In this document: positions 4,068 to 63,272 of the stretch, one piece after another | Position numbering within the stretch: position 1 is the first letter of the stretch | How the letters are laid out: every line of letters begins with the position of its first letter | Assembly (NCBI GenBank): GCA_038064515.1 | Contig: JBBTSY010000007.1 | Coordinates: forward strand, 18,249-82,248 | Direction: 5' to 3' | Length of the DNA stretch: 64,000 bases | Source of the DNA: Patescibacteria group bacterium | Lineage (GTDB): Bacteria > Patescibacteriota > Minisyncoccia > 2-02-FULL-40-12 > GWA2-44-9 | Translations under genes and position numbers: made by a program | The notes under the pieces: generated by a model | The model's input: only the letters and a program-made list of their open reading frames with translations | Database searches by the model: none | Told to the model about the DNA's origin: nothing

Positions 4068-4153
4068 GCCCGGGTGGTGGAAGGGCATACACGTACGACT
4101 CAAAATCGTATGGCCGCAAGGCCGTGTGGGTTCAAGTCCCACCCCGGGCACCA
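4068..4153 (+). tRNA. tRNA-Leu (anticodon CAA), type II with long variable arm, CCA encoded
   Basis: A hand-folded cloverleaf fits the sequence. The acceptor stem is GCCCGGG/CCCGGGC. The D-stem is GTG/CAC with a GG-containing D-loop. The anticodon stem is TACGA/TCGTA with loop CTCAAAA, giving anticodon CAA. A variable-arm hairpin GGCC-GCAA-GGCC is present. The T-arm is GTGGG-TTCAAGT-CCCAC. The discriminator A and CCA occupy 4150-4153. Confidence 0.8.
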
Positions 4154-24608: not shown

Positions 24609-25649
24609 TTATAATTTCCCGTTTGCATGGCCATTTTTGGCGATATAAACAATCCCATTTCCAGGTGGCTTTGCATGGCCATTAGCATCTCCGTTTCCAT
24701 TCGCATGCCCGTTTGCATGGCCATTTCCATTACCAGGAACAGGGGGCTTAACTTCTTTCTGATCCATCTTGTTGCGATATAACTCTTCTCTATCATTTCC
24801 AAAGAGTTGCGTATAAATAAAAGAACTTTGACTATTAGCATGCCCGAGTAGCGATGCTATACCATATGCATTCGTATCCTTGCGAGCCAATTCACGACCA
24901 AAGTGATGTCGACAGGAGTGAGGGTTTAAGGGAATAGCCAAACCTGCCTTGTTAGAATATTTCCTTAAAATCTCTGAGATGAAATTTACCTGTAATATCT
25001 TGCCCTTACCAGGGCAGTTTTTATATCCTCCTTTAATTCCAAAAAAGAGTATTTTGGGGTCAGCTAAGGGAATCTCCTGCGCTAACTCCTCCCTTTTAAT
25101 TAACCACTCGGCAAGAGCTTGATTAGCTTCCTCTCTCCAGAAGATTTCACGATAAGGCACAGTCCCTCTTGATTTCTCTGTCTTAATCCTTGCTGACATA
25201 CGATTCAGATCAATATCCTCTAACCGAAGCGATGCTATCTCGCCGTTACGAGCTCCGCTCTCCCATAATAAAGTTATAATCGCTTTATTACGAACATGGG
25301 TATAACCTTTAAAATCCGAACCAGTCCCGTGATCAGGTATTACAGCAAGGAGTTTTCGGTACTCTTCTTCGGTAGCAACTCGTGGAAATTTAAATGTTTT
25401 TCTGGGTATCGGAATAAGATCGGGATTAAAGACTTTTACGTCTCTATCTTTCAAGAAATCAAAGAGCAACTTTAAGGCAATAGCTTTTTTCTGAACAGCC
25501 TCAAATGCTTTGCAGAATAAATTTTCCGTAGCTCGATATGCAAGATAAGGCTCCGGTGCTTCTGAAAAAAGTTTTGAGAGCGAGCCAATAGCCTTAAGTA
25601 GTCGCTCGTAATACTGCACCTGTTCTTTTGTCTGCGTTTCTATGAACAT
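24609..25649 (-). CDS. Tyrosine site-specific recombinase/integrase (XerC/D-like) with C-terminal Gly/Asn/His repeat tail
   Basis: 346 aa. The catalytic region has LLGHANSQSSFIYTQLF (catalytic Tyr), HSCRHHFG and the R...E core (LWESGARNGEIASLRLEDIDL). The C-terminal approximately 45 aa, GNGNGHANGHANGNGDANGHAKPPGNG..., is encoded by tandem DNA repeats. Confidence 0.85.
   Translation of the reverse strand: MFIETQTKEQVQYYERLLKAIGSLSKLFSEAPEPYLAYRATENLFCKAFEAVQKKAIALKLLFDFLKDRDVKVFNPDLIPIPRKTFKFPRVATEEEYRKLLAVIPDHGTGSDFKGYTHVRNKAIITLLWESGARNGEIASLRLEDIDLNRMSARIKTEKSRGTVPYREIFWREEANQALAEWLIKREELAQEIPLADPKILFFGIKGGYKNCPGKGKILQVNFISEILRKYSNKAGLAIPLNPHSCRHHFGRELARKDTNAYGIASLLGHANSQSSFIYTQLFGNDREELYRNKMDQKEVKPPVPGNGNGHANGHANGNGDANGHAKPPGNGIVYIAKNGHANGKL
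24615..24735. repeat. Imperfect tandem repeats (3 copies of a TTTGCATGGCCAT-containing unit, 42-48 bp period) encoding the integrase tail
   Basis: TTTGCATGGCCAT occurs at approximately 24622, 24670 and 24712, with related TTTCCAT/GCATGCCC sub-units. Both reading frames give repetitive peptides (GHANG... or MAMQTG...). Confidence 0.7.
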
Positions 25650-26607
25650 CGTTAGATTTTGTTTCTAAAGCCTTCTTAATCTGGCGGGCTACCCGTGAGA
25701 TCACGGAGACTGTGACCGAATTTCCAAACTGCTTATAAAGCTTGGTGTCTGGAAGGTCTTTTGGAAGCTTATAGGTTTCCGGAAATCCTTGCAACCTTGC
25801 GCATTCCCTAGGAGTAAGTTTTCTAACGCCCTTATAATCTTTAATTAACGGCACATTGTGCCCTCCTGTCCCCATATTGGCAGTAAGTGTCGGACAAACC
25901 CCGCTCTTATTCTCGCGAACATAAGCTCTTCGCCACTGATATACAGTGCCTTTTGACTGCATTGCTTCCCTCAGTTGTCCATAGAGAGGATGCTTATTAT
26001 AGTAATATCTCTCATCAACGTTTTCGTCAAGAATGTCGGAAACTGTTTTATCAAGAGAAAGCGATTCTGGAAATTCAAATGCGTCGAATTGCTGTTTGGA
26101 TTTGAATCCAACAATATAAATTCTCTCTCTATTTTGAGGAACATTCCCATATTTCGCGCTATTTAAAACCTCGGCTTTTACATGATAGCCCAAATCCGAA
26201 AGCGCTTCAGAAATAATTTTAAAAGTTTTGCCATTATCATGGGATTTAAGATTTTTTACGTTTTCTAGAAAAACTGCTTTCGGCTTTTTATCTCTAAGGA
26301 TTCTAACTATTTAAAAAAATAAATCCCCCCTGCCGGTATCAAGAAACCCTCTTCGGTATCCAGCGATTGAGAAGGGTTGGCACGGAAATCCACCGAGAAG
26401 AATATCAAAATTCGGCAAGTCAGAACTCTTAACTTTTGAAATATCCGCAACAGTAAGCGGAGTTCCCTTAAAGTTGAGATCATAGGTCGGCTTGCAATAC
26501 GGATCAAAGTCATTGGCAAAAACAGTCTCAAATCCGGCTCTTTTAAAGCCTATTCTTATGCCTCCAATTCCTGCAAACAAATCAATGGTTTTGAGTGAAT
26601 TGCTCAT
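25594..26607 (-). pseudogene. C5-cytosine DNA methyltransferase (Dcm-like) interrupted by a single in-frame TAA (26313..26311)
   Basis: The N-terminal ORF 26311..26607 has motif I DLFAGIGG and motif IV GFPCQPFS. It ends ...RGDLFF*. The same frame continues directly as IVRILRDKKPKAVFLENVKNL... (motif VI ENV), then the target-recognition and C-terminal motifs (RKLTPRECARLQGFP, YKQFGNSVTV). The stop sits where a Glu is expected in the LFFEivR motif. Confidence 0.75.
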
Positions 26608-26700: not shown

Positions 26701-26928
26701 TTACTTAATTAACTTTTCCAATTCATAAAGAACTCTGGCTATAATCTGCCTGACTCTTTCCGGACTGATATTAAACATCTTTCCACTTTCCTTGAGGGTA
26801 TGGGGCTTATCATCTATTCCATGACGAAATTCAAATATCCTTATATACCTGGGCTTGAGATTAAGACGATTTCTGACCTTTTTATACTGTTCGATCATTA
26901 AAAATTTTTCGAAAGCCCAAGTAATCAA
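26701..26928 (-). CDS. Small sigma-70 region-4-like HTH protein (75 aa)
   Basis: RYIRIFEFRHGIDDKPHTLKESGKMFNISPERVRQIIARVLYEL resembles the sigma70 region 4.2 HTH, which binds the -35 element. No region 2 or 3 is present. It is the last gene of the MoxR/VWA operon strand. Confidence 0.5.
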   Translation of the reverse strand: MITWAFEKFLMIEQYKKVRNRLNLKPRYIRIFEFRHGIDDKPHTLKESGKMFNISPERVRQIIARVLYELEKLIK

Positions 26929-27020
26929 TCAAGTACCAAGGCTCCAAGTTCCCAAGTCCCCGATGAAACTACCGAGCGGGGCAGACGCCGAGAGTGGAAT
27001 CCGAGTTGCCACGCGAATCG
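26897..27020. repeat. 124-bp direct repeat copy 1 (3' end of paralog A + 3'UTR CCAAG array); identical to 29589..29712
   Basis: Exact nucleotide identity by inspection. Similarity continues with a few mismatches for approximately 65 bp into the coding region. Confidence 0.85.
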
Positions 27021-27907
27021 TAGTCGACGTGGAGACCGCCCGAATCGAAGCCACCAGCGCAGACGAAGCTGCCGTCGGACGACTGCACGGCTGACCAATC
27101 CCATGTTCTTTCTAAGAGAGACTCCTTATTAGCACCGTAATATGTAATGGTATCATAAACTACCTCAGTAGGAGTTCTTCTTCGTACAGAATTCGGATCT
27201 ATTCCATTTTTCTTAGCCCATTCTTTAAGAACCTCTTCTTGCTGGTCCCAATTTTTACTAAGAGATTCCGGTAAAACTGCTTTAGCGGCCAAACCCCAGC
27301 CTAATTTAGTAGTATCTTCTAAAGAAAACTTTTCCTTGTCATGCCAAGCCTCGCCTTTTTTATAATAAAATATTTTATTCTTTTTCTTTGTAGGATCCCC
27401 GAGCTTATCTTCGCCCTGCATTACCTCCCGCATCCTGTCTATGCTTAAAGGTTTTCCTTCCTTATCATGAGGAACTCGAAGCACCAGCATCATACCCAGG
27501 GCTTTTGCCTGTTCTAATTCTTCCCTGCTGAAAGGTATATTTTCTATTTGGCTTGCTTCTTCAGGCGTTAATTTAATGCCCCAGGTTTTTTCAACTGCCT
27601 CCGGACCAATAAAATCTTTTTCCAATATTTCCCTAGCTTCTCTGAAATCTAAACGGGCCTCCGGAGAAGCAAGTTTTTCCAATTGCTGAAGCTTTTCAAG
27701 CGCTTGGCCTAAATCATTATTAGCAAAAGCTTCTTGAACTCCTTTTGCCAACTCAATAGATTTTACTTTTAGCTCGGCCTCTTCACGCTCTTGCTGTTCT
27801 CTTTCTTCAATCTCTCTTTGAGCCGAATCTTTTTCCTTCTTTTTGCCAGCACTTTTGGATTGTTCGCCTTTCCAAAAAGCTTCAAATTGTGGTTTCTCGG
27901 ACGACAT
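26969..27907 (-). CDS. Hypothetical protein, paralog A (312 aa) with conserved approximately 40-aa Cys-containing C-terminal module
   Basis: Charged coiled-coil-like N-terminus. The central region is shared with paralog B (…KNWDQQEEVLKEWAKKNGIDP…). The C-terminus is VQSSDGSFVCAGGFDSGGLHVDYDSRGNSDSTLGVCPAR. The gene lies 3 nt downstream of the MoxR gene. Confidence 0.6.
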   Translation of the reverse strand: MSSEKPQFEAFWKGEQSKSAGKKKEKDSAQREIEEREQQEREEAELKVKSIELAKGVQEAFANNDLGQALEKLQQLEKLASPEARLDFREAREILEKDFIGPEAVEKTWGIKLTPEEASQIENIPFSREELEQAKALGMMLVLRVPHDKEGKPLSIDRMREVMQGEDKLGDPTKKKNKIFYYKKGEAWHDKEKFSLEDTTKLGWGLAAKAVLPESLSKNWDQQEEVLKEWAKKNGIDPNSVRRRTPTEVVYDTITYYGANKESLLERTWDWSAVQSSDGSFVCAGGFDSGGLHVDYDSRGNSDSTLGVCPAR

Positions 27908-27909
27908 AA

Positions 27910-29562
27910 TTATAATTCGGAGATAAGTGTAGCTAAATAAGTACGCTCTTCTCCTAGTGGAATTTTAGGAAGCACAACCTCTTGAACTGCCTTTTTAGCC
28001 TTGGTCATACCCCTTCTCTTTTCTTCTTCAGTAATAACCATGGCCGGCAATTCGTAAGCGCACTCAACAGATTCACGCAAGCTAAAAACGAATTTAATCG
28101 GTTCATCAGATTTGCCTTCATGGTACGCCCTATAAGCTCCCCTGATTTTATTTGCAATTTCAGCCACTTCCTTTATATCCTCAATCTGTTCTTTTACGGA
28201 AGCAGTAAGCAAATCAGCTACTTTGGGGTTTGCCTTATTATTGGCTACCGCATCCCAAAGCATTTGGAATTCTTCAGGAGTAAAATCTTTAAGATCGGGG
28301 ACATACTGGCGCAAGATTAAAGCCTCGTCCGATCTGAATTCGATTTTATCATTCGGACCTTTTCTTTCCTTCTCAAATGGAGGGTATGTGACCTCCATGA
28401 TTCGGGCTCGAGATTTGATCGTTTCCGCTAATGGTTTTACGCCCATATAGTGCTGTGGGTTTTCCAATCCTACCAATAAAACTTCTTCTGCGGCTTTTAC
28501 TATATTCTTATCTTCTCCTAAATATATAGCGCGGTCATGGTCAAATAAAGAATTGAGAATCTTCGCAACTTCCGGTTTAAGGGTATTGATTTCGTCAAAT
28601 TCGAGAATAGCACCTGGCGTTTCAAGAGCTTCTATAACCGTAGACTTGATTCTGTAGGTTCCCCGCTTGGAATCATACTCAAGAAGATACTTAAAGTCCT
28701 GTTCATCCTTTCCTGCAGAACAAGTAAATCTAAATAACGGCCTCTGGGTTAAATAGGCAAAGTGATCAATAATTTTATTCTTTCCAGTACCGGCATCGCC
28801 TTCCAATATAACAATACCCTGACCGCGCTCACGCTGGCGATTAACTAATTTAGTAAATTTCTCCATTGTCTCAACCACATGCGGAGTCTCAACAAAGTTT
28901 GGATCACGGCTAAGGACATCTTTAGCTCCTTCGGTAGCTAAACCATTAAGATGCCTCAAGGCTCTGAGCACCCATTCTGAATCAGGATGTTTTTCTTTTA
29001 ACTCTTCGAAATAGTGCTTGGCCGATTCTTGTTTTTCCGGATCATCGCTGGAAAGATTCTGTACGGCCTCTAAATATCCTGACCTCTCTTTCTTTAATGC
29101 CTTATAATCGCTCAGGGGTAGATATCTGTCCTTTTCTCCAAATCTTACCTTGCCCTGCGAATTGCCTCCTGGCTTAATCTCTACGCCGTCATTCCTTTTA
29201 AAGGATATCTCTACCATGGTTTGGCCTTGTTCTCGAAACTGTTCACCTTCTACATCCCAAAGAAGTTTCTCTCCTTTCGGCTCAAAGACTGGTGTAGATT
29301 CTTGGCCGATGCGCACTTCCTTAGCTCCTTCAATGGGCACGATCTTTTCTTTTTGCTTTGCGTGCACCTCCAAAAACTCTGAAACCTCCTGGGTCTTGCC
29401 CTCAACATCAACCTGCTTAAGAAGTTCCTTTGCTTCCTCCGGTATTTTGCCGGATTTTAAAAGCTCGGCCTTAATCGCCTCAATTCTCTCAAGACGGTCC
29501 ATGTCGTCTGGACGAAAGGCTTTAAATGATTCGACTGATGGCATAGGAATTCGTTCTTTCAT
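27910..29562 (-). CDS. MoxR-type AAA+ ATPase (AAA_5/CbbQ/RavA-like) with long N-terminal extension
   Basis: 550 aa. Walker A-like GDAGTGKN is present, with Asn where Ser/Thr is usual. Walker B is ILEFDEIN. The sensor/arginine region is VGLENPQHYMGVKPLAETIKSR, typical of the MoxR family. The N-terminal approximately 250 aa is charged and of unknown fold. Confidence 0.85.
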   Translation of the reverse strand: MKERIPMPSVESFKAFRPDDMDRLERIEAIKAELLKSGKIPEEAKELLKQVDVEGKTQEVSEFLEVHAKQKEKIVPIEGAKEVRIGQESTPVFEPKGEKLLWDVEGEQFREQGQTMVEISFKRNDGVEIKPGGNSQGKVRFGEKDRYLPLSDYKALKKERSGYLEAVQNLSSDDPEKQESAKHYFEELKEKHPDSEWVLRALRHLNGLATEGAKDVLSRDPNFVETPHVVETMEKFTKLVNRQRERGQGIVILEGDAGTGKNKIIDHFAYLTQRPLFRFTCSAGKDEQDFKYLLEYDSKRGTYRIKSTVIEALETPGAILEFDEINTLKPEVAKILNSLFDHDRAIYLGEDKNIVKAAEEVLLVGLENPQHYMGVKPLAETIKSRARIMEVTYPPFEKERKGPNDKIEFRSDEALILRQYVPDLKDFTPEEFQMLWDAVANNKANPKVADLLTASVKEQIEDIKEVAEIANKIRGAYRAYHEGKSDEPIKFVFSLRESVECAYELPAMVITEEEKRRGMTKAKKAVQEVVLPKIPLGEERTYLATLISEL

Positions 29563-29588
29563 AATTTATTTATTTTTTACGATTATTT

Positions 29589-29712
29589 ATTAAAAATTTT
29601 TCGAAAGCCCAAGTAATCAATCAAGTACCAAGGCTCCAAGTTCCCAAGTCCCCGATGAAACTACCGAGCGGGGCAGACGCCGAGAGTGGAATCCGAGTTG
29701 CCACGCGAATCG
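29589..29712. repeat. 124-bp direct repeat copy 2 (3' end of paralog B + 3'UTR)
   Basis: Identical to 26897..27020. Confidence 0.85.
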
Positions 29713-30740
29713 CGGTCGACGCCGAGACCGTCCGAATCGAAGGCACCAGCGCAGACGAAGCTGCCGCCGGACGACTCTGTTTTCGACCAATCGTAATCCC
29801 TTTCTAGTAAACGTGCTTTCCTGGCTTCGTAATAAGCCAGGACATCATAGATTGTTTCAATCGCCTTTCTCCTGCTTACAAACTTGGGGTCGACCTTGTG
29901 TTCCTTCGCCCACTCCTTCAATACTTCTTCCTGCTCATCCCAATTTTTATCCCTAGTTTCTTCAAGAAGCTCTTTCTTGACAATACTCCAGGCAAGCTCT
30001 ATTACTTCTTCAGTAGCAAACTTCTCCTCATCATACCAGTCCTGGTCATAAAATAAAGGAAACTTTTTTCTTAAATTCGCAATAGTTCCCATCGCTTCTT
30101 TACCTTCAAGCATTACTTTAGGCGATCGCAAGACAACCATAAAACCCTCCTTCTTTAACTGTTCAAGAGATTCTTTTGTCAGTCCCTGCTGGCGAACTTT
30201 TTCTCTCCACTTTTCAGAAATTAATCTAAGCTCTTCCTGATTAAATTTACGACCACTGAATTTTTCAGCCTCTTCAATTCCTAAAAAGTCTTCCTTAAAG
30301 ATTTCCTTCAACTCTTTAAGCTCTCTGACTTCTCCCATCTCCGGAGTAATCTGGTTCTGTATTTTCTCAAGAATTGCTAAAGCTCCTGGAATATCGTCTT
30401 TCGCAAAAAGTTCTTGAGCCTCTTTAGCTAATTCTGTAATTTGTCTTTCCTGTTCCTGGCCAAGGGTAATTTCTACAATCATCTTGCCTTGCATTGAATC
30501 TCCTGGCTTCGAATCTTCAACTATGCGAACCCTATACGCTCTCCCTGCTTCCGGAACTTGGGAAGACTGGCTAAGTATAATTATTTTTCTGTCGGGAGAG
30601 CTGTTGCGATATTCTATTGTCCCATCTTTCTTGCTAACCTCCGAAAATACAATATCTTCCAGAATTTTCTCCTGTGGTTCAGTTTCCAGCCTTTTCTCTG
30701 GTTTTTGGCCTATTTCGGGCCTAAATTGTGGTTTTTCCAT
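29661..30740 (-). CDS. Hypothetical protein, paralog B (approximately 359 aa from ATG 30740) with the same C-terminal module
   Basis: The start was trimmed to MEKPQFRPEIGQ, which parallels paralog A's MSSEKPQFEAFW. The C-terminus is ESSGGSFVCAGAFDSDGLGVDRDSRGNSDSTLGVCPAR. The last approximately 50 nt of coding sequence plus approximately 75 nt of 3'UTR are identical to paralog A at the DNA level. Confidence 0.6.
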   Translation of the reverse strand: MEKPQFRPEIGQKPEKRLETEPQEKILEDIVFSEVSKKDGTIEYRNSSPDRKIIILSQSSQVPEAGRAYRVRIVEDSKPGDSMQGKMIVEITLGQEQERQITELAKEAQELFAKDDIPGALAILEKIQNQITPEMGEVRELKELKEIFKEDFLGIEEAEKFSGRKFNQEELRLISEKWREKVRQQGLTKESLEQLKKEGFMVVLRSPKVMLEGKEAMGTIANLRKKFPLFYDQDWYDEEKFATEEVIELAWSIVKKELLEETRDKNWDEQEEVLKEWAKEHKVDPKFVSRRKAIETIYDVLAYYEARKARLLERDYDWSKTESSGGSFVCAGAFDSDGLGVDRDSRGNSDSTLGVCPAR

Positions 30741-30907
30741 GGTGGTATTGACAAGTTGTATATATTTTGCTATAATGGCTATAGAAACTTTAACAAGTCG
30801 GGGAGGAGCGGTTAGCCACACCGTAACCTCCAAAAAGGAGATCCGGCCCACCTTGTCCTAGCCACGGACGAGGAGCCACCCAGCCTCTATTAAAAATAGG
30901 GACTTTT

Positions 30908-33067
30908 TTATTTGCTCTCCGACCTTTCAAATTTCTGCAACTGCTTCTCTAAAATTTTTAATAACGATTGGGGCAGTTTCTGAATATCTGGAACTGGCAG
31001 TCCATTTTTATCATAATACTGTTTTATGGTTCTTTCCATACCTGGTCCAATACCTATTCCAATCAAAGGAATCTGTTTCGTCCATTTTCTAACTATTTCA
31101 CGCAACTCCCATTCTGATCCCGCATGGCGCGAACTTGGCGCCGGCTGTCCGTCAGAAAATACAATTAAGGCACCCGAAGCATCATTCTCTAATAATCTTT
31201 TCTGGAGACGTCTTGCCGCGCTGTCTACTGCAAAGCCATCGTCATTATATTGGGCACCCGATGACTTTACTTCTTTAAGCACCCTCATAATCTCCAATTT
31301 CTTTTTGCCAAAGTAGTTCTCATCAAATCCCTTGAGCTCGAGGAGTTGGGCATGAAAAGCCAATATTTCAAAAGGTACCCCTTTTTGTGAAAATGCCTCG
31401 GCCATTAAAATAGCTGCCTTCAATGCTTCCTGAATTTTTTCTCCATCCATGCTTCCGCTTACATCAACTAGCAGAGAAAAGGCAACGGCTTTAACCTCCG
31501 GTACATCTTTACGCTCAAAAAATCTGCCTTCTTGAGTGGGAATTTCCCTGGCAAGCTTTCGCGGATCAATTCTTTTACCGCGCCTATACCCGCCCTCCCA
31601 TTCCGCTTCTTCTTGAGGAGGGAAGACCTCATCGAGACGCTCAACAAGCATGCCGACATATTTTTTAATCTGAGAGTAATAAGCGTCATAGCGCTCCCTC
31701 TCCTCTTTAGTGAGGCCCGTCATTCTTTCTTTAAGATTTTCCTGAGTTGCTTCTAAATTCTTTTGAACTTCGCTCTTCGCTTGCTGGATTTGCTCTTGGC
31801 GCTTCTTCTCTCTTTCCTGGTATTCTTTCTCTTCCTCCAATGCCTGCTCAATATCCTCCTGGGTCACCATCTGAACCTGAATCTCCATGGTACCATCTTC
31901 ATTTTCTTTCATTTCAACCGATTTCGGCTGAAGCTGTTTGGTAAACTCTCTTTCTTCCTCGTCAAGTTTTTCTCGAGCTTTCTGCCTATATTGGTCCTTC
32001 TCTTCATCAGAAAGTTCGTCCCAATTTTTTTGACCGCCTTCTTTCTGCTTGCCGGCCTCCTCTTGTTTTTCTTGAGGCTCGCCTTTTCCTTCCTGATCTT
32101 CCTGTTTCTCTTTTTGGCTTTGATCCTGCTCTCCCTCCTCTTCTTTAGATTCTTGTTTTTGCTGTTCCTGGCCTTGACCGCCTTGCTGCTGTTGCTTATC
32201 TTGGGCATGCTGTTTCTGAGCTTCTTCCTCAATGTATTTATCAATTAATTCTTTAAATACTGGCCAGCCCTTTTCCCACATAACTTCTTTAAATGCTCTT
32301 CTACCCTTTGATTCATTAAGATATTCATCAAGCACTCCTTCAGTCTCCCCAAAAGCCTTTAATACTTTCTCGTCCTTGATCTTTGATTTCATTTCTTCAA
32401 AATCAAAATCTTCTATGAACGGCTCTGCTCCTTTTGCCCAGCAAAGAAGGCCGTACTGAATAGGCAAAGATTTCTTTTCAAAGTCATGCAATAAAGCCTG
32501 GGCGATATCTTCTTTTAAATATGCTCCCAAGCGGTGACGTGCCGTTCTGGATGTCTGGCCTTCCTGATTATTCGATCTGCCATCTTCCCAAGCATCGTAA
32601 ATTGTAAAAAGGTCTAACGGTTTATAGCCTTCCTGCTTGGCCAATTCTTGAGATTCCAATAGAGACTGATAATCGGAATGTTTGATATGGCCCATCTCAT
32701 GACGAAAAACTCCAAAGATATAATCTTCACTTCTTTCCAACAAATCTTGCTCCGGATAAGTCATGACCTCAGGTACTAGCAGTTTTTCATCAAAATCTTC
32801 CAAGCTTTTTTCTGGATGTTTTCTCCTCTCCTCTTCAAATTTCTTTGAAAGTCCAGCAGCCCAGCCCTGACCAGGAATAAGATTCAAGTTAAAGTTCTTG
32901 GAAAGATTTTTAGTCACGAACCGCAACTTATCTTTTAGCTCCTGAATTTCGTGAGGGCTTCTTTTCCTCCCCGCCTCCGGCTTCTCTGACATAGGATGAA
33001 AAGCAGACTCTAATTCAGGTCTTTCGTGCTGAGACTTAGGTTGTGGCTCAAAAGACTCTTTGCTCAT
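30908..33067 (-). CDS. HExxH metallopeptidase-like N-domain + Gln/Glu/Lys-rich linker + C-terminal von Willebrand factor A domain protein (DUF2201-like MoxR partner)
   Basis: 719 aa. RHEMGH lies at residues approximately 122-127 (coordinates approximately 32687-32704). A long QQQGGQGQEQQKQESKEEEGEQ... low-complexity coiled-coil region follows. The VWA domain has the MIDAS motif DVSGSM plus downstream FSDG. This is the first gene of the operon. The architecture is the kind that is normally paired with MoxR AAA+ ATPases. Confidence 0.8.
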   Translation of the reverse strand: MSKESFEPQPKSQHERPELESAFHPMSEKPEAGRKRSPHEIQELKDKLRFVTKNLSKNFNLNLIPGQGWAAGLSKKFEEERRKHPEKSLEDFDEKLLVPEVMTYPEQDLLERSEDYIFGVFRHEMGHIKHSDYQSLLESQELAKQEGYKPLDLFTIYDAWEDGRSNNQEGQTSRTARHRLGAYLKEDIAQALLHDFEKKSLPIQYGLLCWAKGAEPFIEDFDFEEMKSKIKDEKVLKAFGETEGVLDEYLNESKGRRAFKEVMWEKGWPVFKELIDKYIEEEAQKQHAQDKQQQQGGQGQEQQKQESKEEEGEQDQSQKEKQEDQEGKGEPQEKQEEAGKQKEGGQKNWDELSDEEKDQYRQKAREKLDEEEREFTKQLQPKSVEMKENEDGTMEIQVQMVTQEDIEQALEEEKEYQEREKKRQEQIQQAKSEVQKNLEATQENLKERMTGLTKEERERYDAYYSQIKKYVGMLVERLDEVFPPQEEAEWEGGYRRGKRIDPRKLAREIPTQEGRFFERKDVPEVKAVAFSLLVDVSGSMDGEKIQEALKAAILMAEAFSQKGVPFEILAFHAQLLELKGFDENYFGKKKLEIMRVLKEVKSSGAQYNDDGFAVDSAARRLQKRLLENDASGALIVFSDGQPAPSSRHAGSEWELREIVRKWTKQIPLIGIGIGPGMERTIKQYYDKNGLPVPDIQKLPQSLLKILEKQLQKFERSESK

Positions 33068-33384
33068 TTAGGTATTGGGATTATATAAGTTCATTCTAAG
33101 TGTTAAGGGTATAAAAAGCAAACTTGCCTATCGGCTCATTTTCTGCAATAATGGTGGCGAGTCTTGTTAATAGAGATTAGGCTAAGGTTTAATCTTATGG
33201 GTCTCCTTTATTCATTCCTCACCAGAGTTCTTATGGCTACGGCTATAAGAAGTGGCGTGACCGGATATCGTAAGAGAGATGAAACTACGTGTTTTGTTTC
33301 AGTGTAGGTACTCCAGATTCGCATCGGGAGTTGCTACCAAGTAAAATTCAGGAGATGTTTCCTTTTTGAAACTATCCAGTGGCC

Positions 33385-33537
33385 ATGAGGCGATTACAGA
33401 GGGGACAAAACACCAAGGTGCAGTCGTCCGACGGCAACTTCGTCTACGCTGGTAACTTCGATTCGGACGGTCTCAACGTCAACAACGATTCGCGTGACAA
33501 CTCGAATTCCAATCTCGGCGTCTGCCCCGCTCGGTAG
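33385..33537 (+). CDS. Orphan small ORF (50 aa) consisting essentially of the conserved C-terminal module; inverted relative to the paralogs
   Basis: MRRLQRGQNTKVQSSDGNFVYAGNFDSDGLNVNNDSRDNSNSNLGVCPAR*. The last 52 nt match the paralog 3' ends with about 3 mismatches on the opposite strand. The hairpin AAGAGCCTTC-caaat-GAAGGCTCTT follows the stop at approximately 33560-33585. It is too short for the ORF track. Confidence 0.35.
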   Translation: MRRLQRGQNTKVQSSDGNFVYAGNFDSDGLNVNNDSRDNSNSNLGVCPAR

Positions 33538-33792
33538 TATTATCTATCTTCCTCTGCTAAGAGCCTTCCAAATGAAGGCTCTTAGTTTAATCCCGACTGG
33601 ATTTAATCCAGCCCCCAAGCATTTTACCGATTTCTTGGATATAGCCCTGACAGTAAATATAACGCTTCTCGTTTAAAATCTTTAAATCCGATAAAAGCCT
33701 TATAAATACCTTGAGCATATCCACTTTCTAGGGTTATAATCTGCCGATATAAGCTCTTTAATTTTTACTTGGGTTATTTGCATAAATATAGG

Positions 33793-33856: not shown

Positions 33857-34282
33857 TCAGTACGGAAGCCGTACCGCTTTTGGTCTAGTTTCCCTACCAA
33901 TTCTGGTATGTTTTCTGTACTGGTTCACTTTCCGTACTACCTCGTCCGCGACCATGGAAAGATTGATTTCATAGCAGTTGCCACGGAAGTCTTTTCGGAC
34001 CAGAATCGCTCCGGCCTTTGTAAGATTCGAAAGCGATTCGCTGACTACCGATCGCGACAATCCCGCGCCAAAGTCCAGGATTTTTCCATCCCTTGTCTTA
34101 ATGCCTTTCATAAATTGAGTGAAGCTGATCCGGTCCACCTGCTTGTGAAATCCGAACGTGCGCCGGCAGATATACAGAAGGCATTTGCCCTCGCCTTCCG
34201 GTATTAGAGGCAGAATCTTATCCAAAATAAGGTTGGGTATCTGAGTGCTATTGGGTATAAGATGTCTGTTTTCCTCTGGCAT
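33857..34282 (-). CDS. Phage/plasmid-type replication organizer-like winged-helix protein
   Basis: 141 aa. LLYICRRTFGFHKQVDRISFTQFMKGIKTRDGKILDFGAGLSRSVVSESLSNLTKAGAILVRKD resembles the N-terminal wH DNA-binding domain of phage replisome organizer/DnaD-like proteins. It was preferred over the overlapping + strand ORF 33854..34207. Confidence 0.5.
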   Translation of the reverse strand: MPEENRHLIPNSTQIPNLILDKILPLIPEGEGKCLLYICRRTFGFHKQVDRISFTQFMKGIKTRDGKILDFGAGLSRSVVSESLSNLTKAGAILVRKDFRGNCYEINLSMVADEVVRKVNQYRKHTRIGRETRPKAVRLPY

Positions 34283-34388: not shown

Positions 34389-34622
34389 TTAGCTGATGAT
34401 GTTAATTAACCTCTCGTTCTCCAGGAATGATTCGGATTTCAGAAGGTAATCCCCGTCATAGATATTGTTGTACTCAATATCGTATTCGTAGATTGCCGCC
34501 TTCTCGAAGTTTTCAATCGCCTCCATGATCTCGTCCATGGTTGGTGCTGATGCCAACTCTTCTTCCTGATCAGTTCCTGTAAATGCCACGTACCACTTAT
34601 CGGTTCGCGTGGACCTGGCCAT
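34389..34622 (-). CDS. Hypothetical small acidic protein (77 aa)
   Basis: ORF only. It lies between the AAA_24 gene and the replication organizer on the same strand. Confidence 0.3.
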   Translation of the reverse strand: MARSTRTDKWYVAFTGTDQEEELASAPTMDEIMEAIENFEKAAIYEYDIEYNNIYDGDYLLKSESFLENERLINIIS

Positions 34623-35739
34623 TTCCTTTTCCGGGTCCAGCCTTGGCTTTCGTGCGTTCGGCTTTCTCCATCTCTTTCTGCTCGGCTTTCAATGCTTTTT
34701 GGACAAACTCTTGGATTTTGACAAATCCTCTTTCGAGCATATCCGGGTGCATCTGCTCAACTGCCGTCCAGCTTCCAGTATTGAAGCCGTACATAACCGC
34801 ATCAATCTTGAACTTCTTTGATTGAGCATCTTGGCCAGGCTTAACCTGGACCAGGTATGATTCAATCTCTTCAAGAATGATCTTCTTTCGCTTCCTGAAC
34901 ATTTCTTTATCATCTTCGGTCTTGAACAGATCACGCGCATCGCGTTCTCCGACTGTCGAGAGCTTCACTGGTGAATCAAGCATAACTTCGATAACCGGGG
35001 CAAAGTCCTCGTATGTCGGATCTTCGAAAGTCTTGCCATCAAGTACCGTAGATCGGTCCTTAATGATCGTGGCCCGTCTTGAAACTGATTTAACTGTGCT
35101 ACCTTCCATCTCCTGCAACCGTTCCATAAGCACGAGCAAATCAGGCTCGTAGGCGGTTTCGCCTTCAACCTTCATCTTTACGCCTGACTTGTAGATTTCA
35201 CGCTTGCCGGTATCGGCATTAACCTCGTTCTCATATTCGTATCCGGCGCGACCGCACATGACAACATGATACGGATCGCCGACGAACAGATCGCTGAATT
35301 CGGTTTTCCATGTCGGCTTAATGATTCCCCAATCTTGGAATTCAAGTCTTAATTTGGCCGACTTGCCGTACTTAGTCGGAGCTTGCTTGTATGATTCCAG
35401 AAAGTTCTCCCATACATGGGATATTGAATCAATGATCAAGATATCGCTGAAGCCTTCCCGCATTCGGGTCATGGTCTCCTTCAAGTCAGCCAAAGACTTG
35501 GACTCTTTCACCAGTAATTCGATTCCCTCTTGGGCGAATAGTGGCTTTAAGAACTTCGACGCCTTTTCGGTATCGAAGATAATAACTGGCTTTGTTGATC
35601 CTATCCTCTTGTATAAACCAACAGCTATTTTAGCTGCGGTATACGTCTTACCTGTTCCAGCAAAACCCTCAAAGGCCGCTTTGAAATACGGCTTGGTGTT
35701 TGCTACCGGAACGAAGAAATTATCTTTGTTCATTTGCAT
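34597..35739 (-). CDS. Phage-associated RecA-fold ATPase (AAA_24/Sak4-like)
   Basis: 380 aa. Walker A is GFAGTGKTYTA, and a Walker B-like IIFDTE is present. The size and architecture match the AAA_24 family common in phage replication/recombination modules. The C-terminus is Lys/Glu-rich. Confidence 0.7.
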   Translation of the reverse strand: MQMNKDNFFVPVANTKPYFKAAFEGFAGTGKTYTAAKIAVGLYKRIGSTKPVIIFDTEKASKFLKPLFAQEGIELLVKESKSLADLKETMTRMREGFSDILIIDSISHVWENFLESYKQAPTKYGKSAKLRLEFQDWGIIKPTWKTEFSDLFVGDPYHVVMCGRAGYEYENEVNADTGKREIYKSGVKMKVEGETAYEPDLLVLMERLQEMEGSTVKSVSRRATIIKDRSTVLDGKTFEDPTYEDFAPVIEVMLDSPVKLSTVGERDARDLFKTEDDKEMFRKRKKIILEEIESYLVQVKPGQDAQSKKFKIDAVMYGFNTGSWTAVEQMHPDMLERGFVKIQEFVQKALKAEQKEMEKAERTKAKAGPGKGNGQVHANR

Positions 35740-43572: not shown

Positions 43573-43578
43573 AATTTG

Positions 43579-43652
43579 CGCGGGCGGCCGGATTCGAACC
43601 GGTGACCTCTTCCGTGACAGGGAAGCGCTCTAACCAGCTGAGCTACGCCCGC
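43579..43652 (-). tRNA. tRNA-Asp (anticodon GTC), CCA not encoded
   Basis: Minus-strand reading GCGGGCG-TA-GCTC-AGCTGGTTA-GAGC-G-CTTCC-CTGTCAC-GGAAG-AGGTC-ACCGG-TTCGAAT-CCGGC-CGCCCGC-G. The anticodon loop is CTGTCAC. Confidence 0.85.
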
Positions 43653-62825: not shown

Positions 62826-63179
62826 GGGGATGATCGGTATCGACGTTGTTATTCCATCCCTCTGATGCCGTGCGTGAATGATCGTTACCACGTAAATCTT
62901 CGGTCAAACATAATAACTGGCAACACTTCCAGTAATTACGCTTTCGCCTAACCTAGTTAGGTAAGCCATTCCTCCCAGATGTTCGATATGGGATTAAGGA
63001 GTGTCATTATCGAGCTTTAGCAGGACGGATGTTCTCCCCTCGTCTGCTGAAAATCTGGAGAACTAGTGCGAGATTATTTTGTCGGTTTCCTACTCTCGCG
63101 TGAAACACCAAATCGGCTATCACGGTAGTACATCATTGGTTTGCAACAGCGGACGCGAGTTCGATTCTCGCCATCTCCA
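62826..63179 (+). ncRNA. ssrA: tmRNA (SsrA), standard one-piece form; CCA not encoded
   Basis: The 5' end GGGGATGATCGGTATCGACG parallels the E. coli 5' end GGGGCUGAUUCUGGAUUCGACG. The 3' end GGACGCGAGTTCGATTCTCGCCATCTCCA parallels E. coli GGACGCGGGUUCAACUCCCGCCAGCUCCA. The acceptor GGGGATG/CATCTCC has a G3:U70 pair. The candidate tag ORF GGC AAC ACT TCC AGT AAT TAC GCT TTC GCC TAA (62919-62951) gives (A)GNTSSNYAFA with a second in-frame TAG. Confidence 0.8.
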
Positions 63180-63272
63180 CATCGTTAGTATTTTCAGTTG
63201 CAAGCTCCTCAAAAAGCCTCGGGGCATGCAGCACTTCGCTAGAAGTAAAACAGTGATATAATTTAGTAACAT

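Follow-up and report, generated by a model that had tools for sequence, protein, structure and literature searches.

A truncated diversity-generating retroelement in a Patescibacteria genome and the periodic CTTGG array beside its variable repeats, a probable target-site element

Introduction

The question raised by the locus described here is why two paralogous genes, diverged over most of their length, should end in an identical stretch that continues well past their stop codons. The locus lies in 64,000 nucleotides (nt) of DNA from a Patescibacteria group bacterium (GenBank assembly GCA_038064515.1, contig JBBTSY010000007.1, positions 18,249 to 82,248 of the forward strand); this whole stretch is called the window from here on, and all coordinates count from its first letter. 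An earlier note, made from the sequence alone, had drawn attention to two exact 124-bp direct repeats at the 3′ ends of the two genes, to a periodic CTTGG array in their non-coding part and to a third, inverted copy, regarding them as a functional nucleic-acid element, homogenised or under purifying selection, or as a substrate for rearrangements. What it overlooked is that the mismatches between the third copy and the other two are confined to adenines, the mark of the template repeat (TR) and two variable repeats (VRs) of a diversity-generating retroelement (DGR). We hold with high confidence that the three copies are best explained jointly as a DGR of the Patescibacteria/Candidate Phyla Radiation (CPR) clade, the non-coding flank being its putative recipient mark.

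As a pair of VRs with their template, the locus belongs to a type of system already known, and known from this group of hosts, the link of DGRs to MoxR/vWA systems and to CPR genomes having been published (PMC7159879, PMC10907252, PMC5758913); its interest lies in the periodic array. For the step in which the complementary DNA (cDNA) of a DGR finds and replaces its target, a GC-rich hairpin is the one recipient signal defined so far, and most DGRs lack it. In the Bordetella phage BPP-1, the 24 bp directly 3′ of the VR, forming a hairpin/cruciform, are required for efficient homing and, together with the initiation of mutagenic homing (IMH) sequence, are sufficient for retargeting (PMC3240598). 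GC-rich inverted repeats occur, however, in only 34% of DGRs, and the IMH and its TR counterpart IMH* can be identical, so that recognition must extend downstream (PMC5758913). An array adjacent to the VRs in a very large clade of CPR DGRs is a concrete and mutable candidate for the missing signal.

Results and discussion

Template and variable repeats

The two direct copies (26897-27020 and 29589-29712) are identical over 124 bp, as the earlier note had it, and with the near-identical extension that it also reported the similarity amounts to 188 nt at 96% (26897-27084 and 29589-29776). Of the exact block, 26969-27020 is coding (52 nt, stop codon included) and 26897-26968 non-coding (72 nt). 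The inverted third copy exists as well, although it is not limited to 33486-33537, the segment first assigned to it, but spans 33418-33544, i.e. 127 nt, being complementary to the two direct copies at 90% and 88%. The repeat boundary coincides with a jump in the divergence of the paralogs: upstream of it they share, in a codon-wise comparison, 55% of nucleotides and 40% of amino acids (aa), as against 91% and 82% within the repeat and 100% over the last nine codons and the flank, the similarity starting exactly at the 5′ end of the TR.

The three copies align without gaps. Over the span compared (33418/33422-33538, with 121 TR bases, 24 of them adenines and 97 non-adenines), every mismatch falls at a TR adenine—11 of 11 for VR1 and 13 of 13 for VR2, i.e. 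24/24 in total—and none was found at the 97 other positions. The TR itself (33418-33544, plus strand), which has the position and orientation of the TRs in related loci, comprises the adenine-mutagenised part (approximately 33431-33512) and a GC-rich, IMH*-like end (33514-33537), followed by TAGTATTATC, the zone where the homology to the VRs decays. The peptide encoded in the TR frame is rich in asparagine, owing to its AAC/AAT codons (NFVYAGNFDSDGLNVNNDSRDNSNSNLGVCPAR), where the VR genes encode S, C, G, H, Y, D, R and T. Concerning the recipients, VR1 (26969-27088, minus strand) covers the last ~40 codons and the stop codon of target gene 1 (open reading frame (ORF) 26969-27907, 312 aa), and VR2 (29661-29776, minus strand) the C-terminal codons of target gene 2, the ORF of which, on the same strand, is 29661-30740 if it starts with MEKPQF or 29661-30851 if it starts at an upstream GTG. 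Both VRs have the location characteristic of DGRs, at the 3′ end of a coding target, and a GC-rich, IMH-like end in common with the TR: the 24-nt segment CTCGGCGTCTGCCCCGCTCGGTAG, corresponding to IMH/IMH*, is identical in TR, VR1 and VR2 and is present nowhere else in the window, the divergence between TR and VRs setting in within 10 nt past the stop codon.

Since the mismatches of the third copy are found only at its adenines, it is RNA-templated retrohoming that has homogenised the coding part of the repeat, rather than gene conversion or purifying selection of the ordinary kind. The exact 124-bp stretch is the part of the VR in which the two alleles happen to agree, extended by the 72-nt flank. 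In an intact element, the TR would be transcribed together with a structured RNA domain on its 5′ side, an error-prone reverse transcriptase (RT) would copy this RNA, misincorporating opposite adenines, and the resulting cDNA would replace the C-terminal ~40 codons (VR1 and VR2) of the two paralogous proteins encoded in the VWA-target-MoxR-target operon. Such a replacement would account for the identity of the VRs at all non-adenine sites, for the remainder of the paralogs being only 40% identical and for the similarity starting at the TR 5′ end.

Strain variation of the variable repeats

Three contigs from another well (H51) of the same aquifer supply further alleles. Two of them (L056 and L057) are identical to the window over 825 nt upstream of VR1, in target gene 1, and 600 nt downstream of it, and differ inside VR1 at 14 nt, 13 of these being TR-adenine positions; the corresponding proteins (P0121 versus P0001) exhibit 11 aa differences, all of them in the VR and none elsewhere. 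The same pattern was observed for target gene 2 in the third contig (L058, protein P0122), with the VR2 differences located mainly at TR-adenine positions. The VR is thus hypervariable between sister strains and the rest of the target gene constant, which is a further hallmark of a DGR. Because the differences between strains fall almost only at TR-adenine sites in the VR, mutagenic homing must have been very recent in this population.

A third, more diverged strain, from well H43 (L060), was recovered by a metagenome scan for the TR end, which returned its VR1 and not an intact cassette. At TR positions 33497 and 33505 (27009 and 27001 in VR1), the adenines have become G in all four H41/H51 VR alleles; the H43 VR1 keeps the TR base A at both of these 3′-most variable sites. 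The shared G could reflect selection for Gly/Asp or a common ancestry of the 3′ segment of the VR. Gene conversion was considered as a reason why the last variable sites are identical, but it is not needed: the two 3′-most sites share the G, one further coincidence suffices for the rest, and the H43 strain has the TR bases.

In principle, the identity of the repeats could also go back to a recent duplication or gene conversion, the repeats then serving mainly for deletions, duplications or inversions. With 188 nt (direct) and 127 nt (inverted), they have sufficient length for homologous recombination; related loci vary in the number and order of their targets (T-MoxR-T-VWA-T versus VWA-T-MoxR-T, with T for a target gene), repeat-mediated rearrangement over evolution being probable; and the flanks are much more alike within a locus than between loci. 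Gene conversion, however, cannot confine the mismatches, or the strain differences, to the adenines of one copy, and the flank is kept across loci whose proteins are ~60% identical, with changes only in its spacers, which indicates selection and not recency. We thus consider this explanation highly improbable. The rearrangements of the MoxR segment envisaged in the earlier note find no support: no rearranged variant was seen in independent assemblies, the order of genes being the same in three independent assemblies of the strain.

The flank of the variable repeats

The TR lacks the 72-nt flank sequence, and homing therefore cannot account for the identity of the two flanks, which on the coding strand read TTTCATCGGGGACTTGGGAACTTGGAGCCTTGGTACTTGATTGATTACTTGGGCTTTCGAAAAATTTTTAAT. 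The element 3′ of VR1 (26897-26968, minus strand) contains TTTC, three CTTGG, one CTTGA and a further CTTGG (26917-26956), and TTCGAAAAATTTTT (26900-26913). The CTTGG units occupy 26956-26952, 26948-26944, 26940-26936 and 26921-26917, and the CTTGA unit 26933-26929, giving spacings of 8, 8, 7 and 12 nt; the ATG of the next gene follows directly after the flank. The element 3′ of VR2 (29589-29660, minus strand) is identical, with the array at 29609-29648 and the A5T5 junction at 29592-29601. The array, quoted correctly in the earlier note, is not a chance product: two CTTGG separated by 2-5 nt are found four times in the window, only at the two VR flanks, compared with 0.4 expected, and none of 100 shuffles reached four.

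A search for the array in related genomes, proposed in the same note, showed it to be conserved in related loci, every VR of the MoxR-type lineage having the same flank construction. In the alignment of 15 flanks from nine loci, the proteins of which are ~60% identical, the spacers vary between invariant cores—TTTC, three CTTG(G) cores, a CTT/TTG.T pair, the final CTTGG and TCGAAAA..TT. Among strain variants of the locus itself, changes are limited to spacer bases or to the length of the A run: the VR2 flank of L058 has two differences, both in spacers, with the CTTGG cores kept, and the H43 flank is identical at 70 of 71 positions (98.6%), apart from a 1-nt deletion in the A run, its adjoining genes being 86-92% identical. 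A flank better conserved than its neighbours and changing only in the spacers or the A run points to purifying selection on the cores. The view of the earlier note that the conserved block is a functional nucleic-acid element is thereby supported.

A repeat scan revealed no inverted repeat, hairpin, cruciform or terminator in the VR flank, and its DNA folds no better than shuffled sequences (z = +1.48). The GC-rich inverted repeat typically sought 3′ of the IMH is lacking here, and direct repeats with A5T5 stand in its place. From a flank without an inverted repeat and folding like its shuffles, we infer that the array and A5T5 may serve as the recipient mark of this lineage. It should be noted that two VR flanks of relatives, at 2767 of L017 and 5359 of L016 (both minus strand), carry the CTTGG array and an inserted GC hairpin together (CCCGCCAGAGGCGGG and GGCCCTCCGTAGCCTTGGCGAAGGAGGC, respectively), so that the two can coexist in one flank.

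Occurrence of the array in related retroelements

Periodicity was evaluated for 49 VR flanks, for 32 loci represented by one flank each, for 32 TR flanks and for 391 other gene 3′ flanks. The autocorrelation of the 49 VR flanks peaks at lag 8 with a harmonic at lags 15-16, its mean at lag 8 being 0.372, in comparison with 0.253 for TR flanks, 0.274 for other gene flanks and 0.285 for shuffled sequences; lag 8 is the best lag in 25/49 VR flanks and in 1/32 TR flanks. At p<0.05, the VR flanks of 16 of the 32 loci are periodic, versus one of the 32 TR flanks and 44 of the 391 other gene flanks (50% vs 11%), and at p<0.01 the respective counts are 9/32, 0/32 and 19/391. An AnTn junction lies within 110 nt in the VR flanks of 14 of the 32 loci and in none of the 32 TR flanks, the background being 0.043 per 110 nt. 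In the wider RT clade, where VR sequences are unrelated, flanks contain arrays of short cores at ~8 nt, such as CTTTG, CTTAG, ACTTTGA or ATTTGA; in many cases, an AnTn junction or a GC hairpin with a GNRA-like loop comes next. The array is thus a VR-specific and recurrent, though not universal, feature of this DGR clade. No description of the flank array or of the 5′ structured RNA was found in the literature searched, a search that did not extend to the primary 2017 paper on CPR DGRs.

These data bear on the possibility that the 72-nt tail acts at the level of mRNA—as a 3′ untranslated region (UTR) or intercistronic regulator, an array for an RNA-binding protein or a processing/termination signal—and has been conserved for the sake of expression. 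The tail lies between cistrons, the next genes beginning 0-27 nt past A5T5, and is transcribed with the target; direct repeats could well bind a multimeric RNA-binding protein, and conservation of the tail does not by itself tell DNA from RNA action. On the other hand, the tail contains no terminator hairpin and, as given above, folds like its shuffles; arrays of the same kind are also present where the preceding gene is the final one of its operon, with a separate terminator hairpin coming after the array (L004_16347 and L001_13711); and it follows VRs with non-alignable sequence and other gene layouts (L018, L024, L036 and L050). The array is, moreover, uncommon after other genes of the same genomes, and TR copies lack it, a contrast to be expected of a discriminator between donor and recipient. 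Taken together, an mRNA-level function appears rather unlikely; the regulatory 3′UTR or RNA-binding array suggested by the earlier note, while not contradicted, fits the observations less well than a target-site element acting at the DNA level.

Possible function of the array

The 72-nt flank is probably such a DGR target-site element, marking the gene as a target in place of the GC-rich hairpin, as judged from the sequence. It would mark the recipient DNA for integration of the cDNA, the role attributed to the IMH-adjacent GC-rich hairpin/cruciform in the Bordetella phage DGR, and it would most likely do so as a binding array, on the sense strand, for the Avd-RT complex or a host factor. The combination of invariant cores with drifting spacers favours a sequence-specific, probably multimeric reader, be it Avd-RT or a host protein.

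The main alternative to a binder would be a role in DNA mechanics alone: slipped pairing of the 8-nt repeats and an easily melted or bent A5T5 would hold the sense strand open 3′ of the VR, in the lagging-strand template or in the course of transcription, and so allow time for the cDNA to anneal. In recent reconstitution work, homing was found to benefit if the lagging-strand template is the strand to which the cDNA is complementary, and the known stem-loop was proposed to prolong the open state (PMC12875486); both the orientation effect and that proposal would suit a mechanical role, as would the enrichment of AnTn junctions at the distal end of VR flanks and the GC skew, which suggests, albeit as a weak inference, that the targets are co-directional with replication. 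Slippage over four or five 8-nt units would, however, give weak structures, and the invariance of the CTTGG pentamer across loci with drifting spacers argues for sequence readout over mere repetitiveness. We judge the mechanical reading improbable.

Extending the target-site element to the clade leads to a tentative proposal, to which we would give somewhat less than an even chance. CPR-clade DGRs may mark their recipients by a ~8-nt YTTKR array (CTTGG here) with an AnTn cap, possibly read on the single-stranded sense strand by a multimeric DGR component, e.g. the pentameric Avd-RT. This would constitute a second, previously undescribed and portable class of recognition element, accompanied by a covarying ~260-nt RNA and an antisense avd. 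If it holds, any gene could be made a target of hypermutation by giving it the IMH together with the array, and the array could serve to retarget the compact CPR DGRs for directed evolution.

Several points weigh against these interpretations. The number of array units differs by lineage (about 4-8), and approximately half of the related loci have no significant periodicity, the array therefore not being universal; the flank sits in the intergenic space of an operon and could act on mRNA. The RT is absent from the 64 kb, both in a six-frame scan for YxDD and in tblastn with the RTs of three relatives, and a search beyond the window gave no match attributable to this metagenome-assembled genome (MAG), so that activity in this strain is unproven. 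Finally, there is no more than a hint of the C-type-lectin fold expected of DGR targets in target protein 1, whose top Foldseek matches in the PDB are FGE, EgtB, SenA and TvpA, all with E >= 0.2.

Three further ideas on the array were discarded. Concerning base-pairing of the array with the DGR RNA, the 5′ RNA domain has a loop with CCAAG in the window, L007 and L015 but not in L001, L004, L012 and L016-19, and the motif is thus not conserved. A match between five array units and a pentameric Avd remains speculation, the units varying between 4 and 8 among lineages. Neither Rho utilisation nor an R-loop fits all the lineages, the flank being G-rich and not C-rich here, and the cores of other lineages (CTTTG, ATTTGA) being G-poor.

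Compared with the DGR of BPP-1 (mtd VR - avd - TR - brt; PMC3240598), the locus has in common the adenine-only differences between TR and VR, the VR formed by the C-terminal codons of the target, the GC-rich identical IMH-like 3′ segment (24 nt here) with TR/VR divergence right after it, the short recipient-specific cis element located directly 3′ of the VR and absent from the TR, and, here as a remnant, an accessory gene of the Avd family. It differs in the nature of the recipient element, which is a GC-rich inverted repeat with a GRNA loop there and a ~8-nt direct CTTG(G/A) array ending in A5T5 here, and in the target, a phage tail fibre there and two proteins of a MoxR/VWA operon here. Also unlike BPP-1, relatives of the window locus have an opposite-strand avd between TR and RT and a covarying RNA 5′ of the TR, and in the window itself the RT is missing and avd truncated.

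Structured RNA and hairpin around the template repeat

A conserved structured RNA domain of ~260 nt (33160-33417, plus strand) was recognized directly 5′ of the TR in an alignment of ten loci of the MoxR lineage (A5). RNAalifold predicts 60 pairs with 97.6% of the cells paired; 22 of the pairs have compensatory changes, in comparison with 3-4 in slid controls, and none of 500 shuffles reached the observed value. The structure includes a long-range helix (GTGTTTTGTTTC/GGAACAAAACAC) that closes directly ahead of the TR. The domain is presumably part of the DGR template RNA and probably the part that recruits RT/Avd. Rfam, at its gathering threshold, assigned only two tRNAs and a transfer-messenger RNA (tmRNA) in the window and no family to this domain.

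On the other side of the TR, 12 nt after it, there is a perfect 12-bp hairpin (33557-33585, plus strand; CTAAGAGCCTTC / GAAGGCTCTTAG with the loop CAAAT), situated in the interval that separates the TR from the 3′ end of a convergent avd remnant. Relatives have at the same spot a hairpin of another sequence with equal pairing, i.e. the stem covaries. The hairpin could be a bidirectional terminator serving also the convergent avd, or part of a structure priming cDNA synthesis.

The truncated cassette

The avd remnant (33590-33727, minus strand) encodes residues 79-124 of a 124-aa Avd, the first 78 codons being gone and stop codons preceding what is left; with the Avd proteins of three relatives it shares 67-72% identity (tblastn, E ~1e-18 to 1e-19). 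Upstream of it, stop codons and unrelated sequence lead into a phage repO gene. The junction between repO and avd is found also in an independent 804-bp contig (L059) and in the ENA version of the contig, and it is therefore not an assembly error. A search with the remnant for an intact cassette of this strain yielded only the same truncated junction, and two further contigs with an RT, examined as the possible source of the RT of this strain, turned out to be other members of the lineage. A rearrangement beside the phage repO has removed the RT together with the first 78 codons of avd, and the window contains a truncated, non-autonomous DGR.

The VRs here either were frozen very recently or are served by an RT elsewhere in the genome. 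In effect, the RT has been deleted by nature while the TR, VRs and flanks are intact, and sister strains with different VR alleles are available; the locus is therefore a useful field case in which to examine whether an RT acting in trans can service DGR targets or how fast these freeze.

Target operon and related systems

The operon begins with a gene for a VWA/CobT_C-domain protein (30908-33067, minus strand; PF11775 and PF00092, E = 2e-11) and continues with target gene 2, a MoxR-type AAA+ ATPase of the AAA_5 family (27910-29562, minus strand; PF07728, E = 3e-19) located between the two target genes, and target gene 1; both the VWA gene and the position of the MoxR gene are conserved in relatives. 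The middle of the VWA gene (31700-32250, minus strand) is a long, highly charged region of low complexity, rich in E/K/Q, with a strong AT skew and several spurious overlapping ORFs. Target protein 1 is annotated at the NCBI as a hypothetical protein of a Patescibacteria MAG and has ~150 homologues, all without Pfam domains; its AlphaFold2 model is confident, with a pLDDT of 91.9. In neither target protein did the domain search detect a VMAP, peptidase, TIR or other effector domain.

The long contigs of relatives show the complete module: a 350-aa RVT_1 RT, an opposite-strand 124-aa bAvd, the TR, VWA, a target, MoxR AAA_5 and a second target, some loci having three targets. The RVT_1 protein is encoded ~400 nt from the TR, and avd lies antisense between TR and RT (L001 6511-6885, L004 9119-9493 and L007 4248-4622), so that a transcript running from TR to RT would be antisense to avd. 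A scan of genome collections with the RT of one relative gave 45 loci, mostly from CPR; among those fetched, 34 distinct related loci have, by script, TR/VR pairs with at least 80% adenine-specific mismatches. The RTs of the relatives cluster with other CPR RTs.

With the CPR/DPANN DGRs (Paul et al. 2017, as reported in PMC10907252 and PMC5758913; DGR clade 2, PMC8144416), the locus shares the Patescibacteria host, several targets per element and the link to an AAA-type ATPase. The targets described in those reports are, however, CLec domains fused to AAA ATPases, whereas here the variable protein, MoxR and VWA are encoded by separate genes. A second point of comparison is given by the vWA-MoxR 'ternary' conflict systems of cyanobacteria, gammaproteobacteria and purple sulfur bacteria (PMC7159879, PMC10907252), in which a MoxR AAA+ ATPase, VWA and a DGR-diversified C-terminal ligand-binding domain are likewise encoded together, the proposed logic being that of a hypervariable sensor coupled to an ATPase (PMC7159879; PMC10907252). 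There, the variable FGS/CLec domain and the VWA protein are as a rule fused, and the systems include a VMAP partner; in the window, the VWA protein is undiversified, neither a VMAP nor an effector domain was recognised, and the host, a CPR bacterium with a small genome, is not multicellular.

Genomic island and other features

The DGR-bearing region (24-36 kb) looks like an integrated mobile element. Over approximately 24-36 kb, the GC content is 0.41-0.44, compared with 0.47-0.50 in most of the flanking windows, and this island, which lies between host genes, contains a tyrosine integrase (24609-25649), a split C5 methylase, a sigma-70 region-4 protein, repO and an AAA_24 protein. On the side where the DGR is cut off, the phage repO-like gene (33857-34282) is followed by a small ORF and the AAA_24 ATPase (34597-35739), and the host genes rplK/nusG/secE come directly after the island, from 35965. 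As for structural RNA genes, the window contains the tmRNA (62826-63182, plus strand; tag GNTSSNYAFA), tRNA-Leu(CAA) (4068-4153, plus strand) and tRNA-Asp(GTC) (43578-43652, minus strand), none of them adjoining the island integrase.

Two genes at the integrase end of the island have an unusual appearance. The end of the integrase ORF (24609-24760, minus strand) forms an odd repetitive tail (PGNGNGHANGHANGNGDANGHAKPPGNG...) with imperfect 12/30-nt direct repeats (24655-24730), overlapped by a 143-aa ORF in another frame. The C-5 cytosine DNA methylase is split on the minus strand into a C-terminal part of 199 aa (25594-26193) and an N-terminal part of 98 aa (26311-26607), 117 nt apart, a split that the gene calls of the sister-strain contig L057 show as well.

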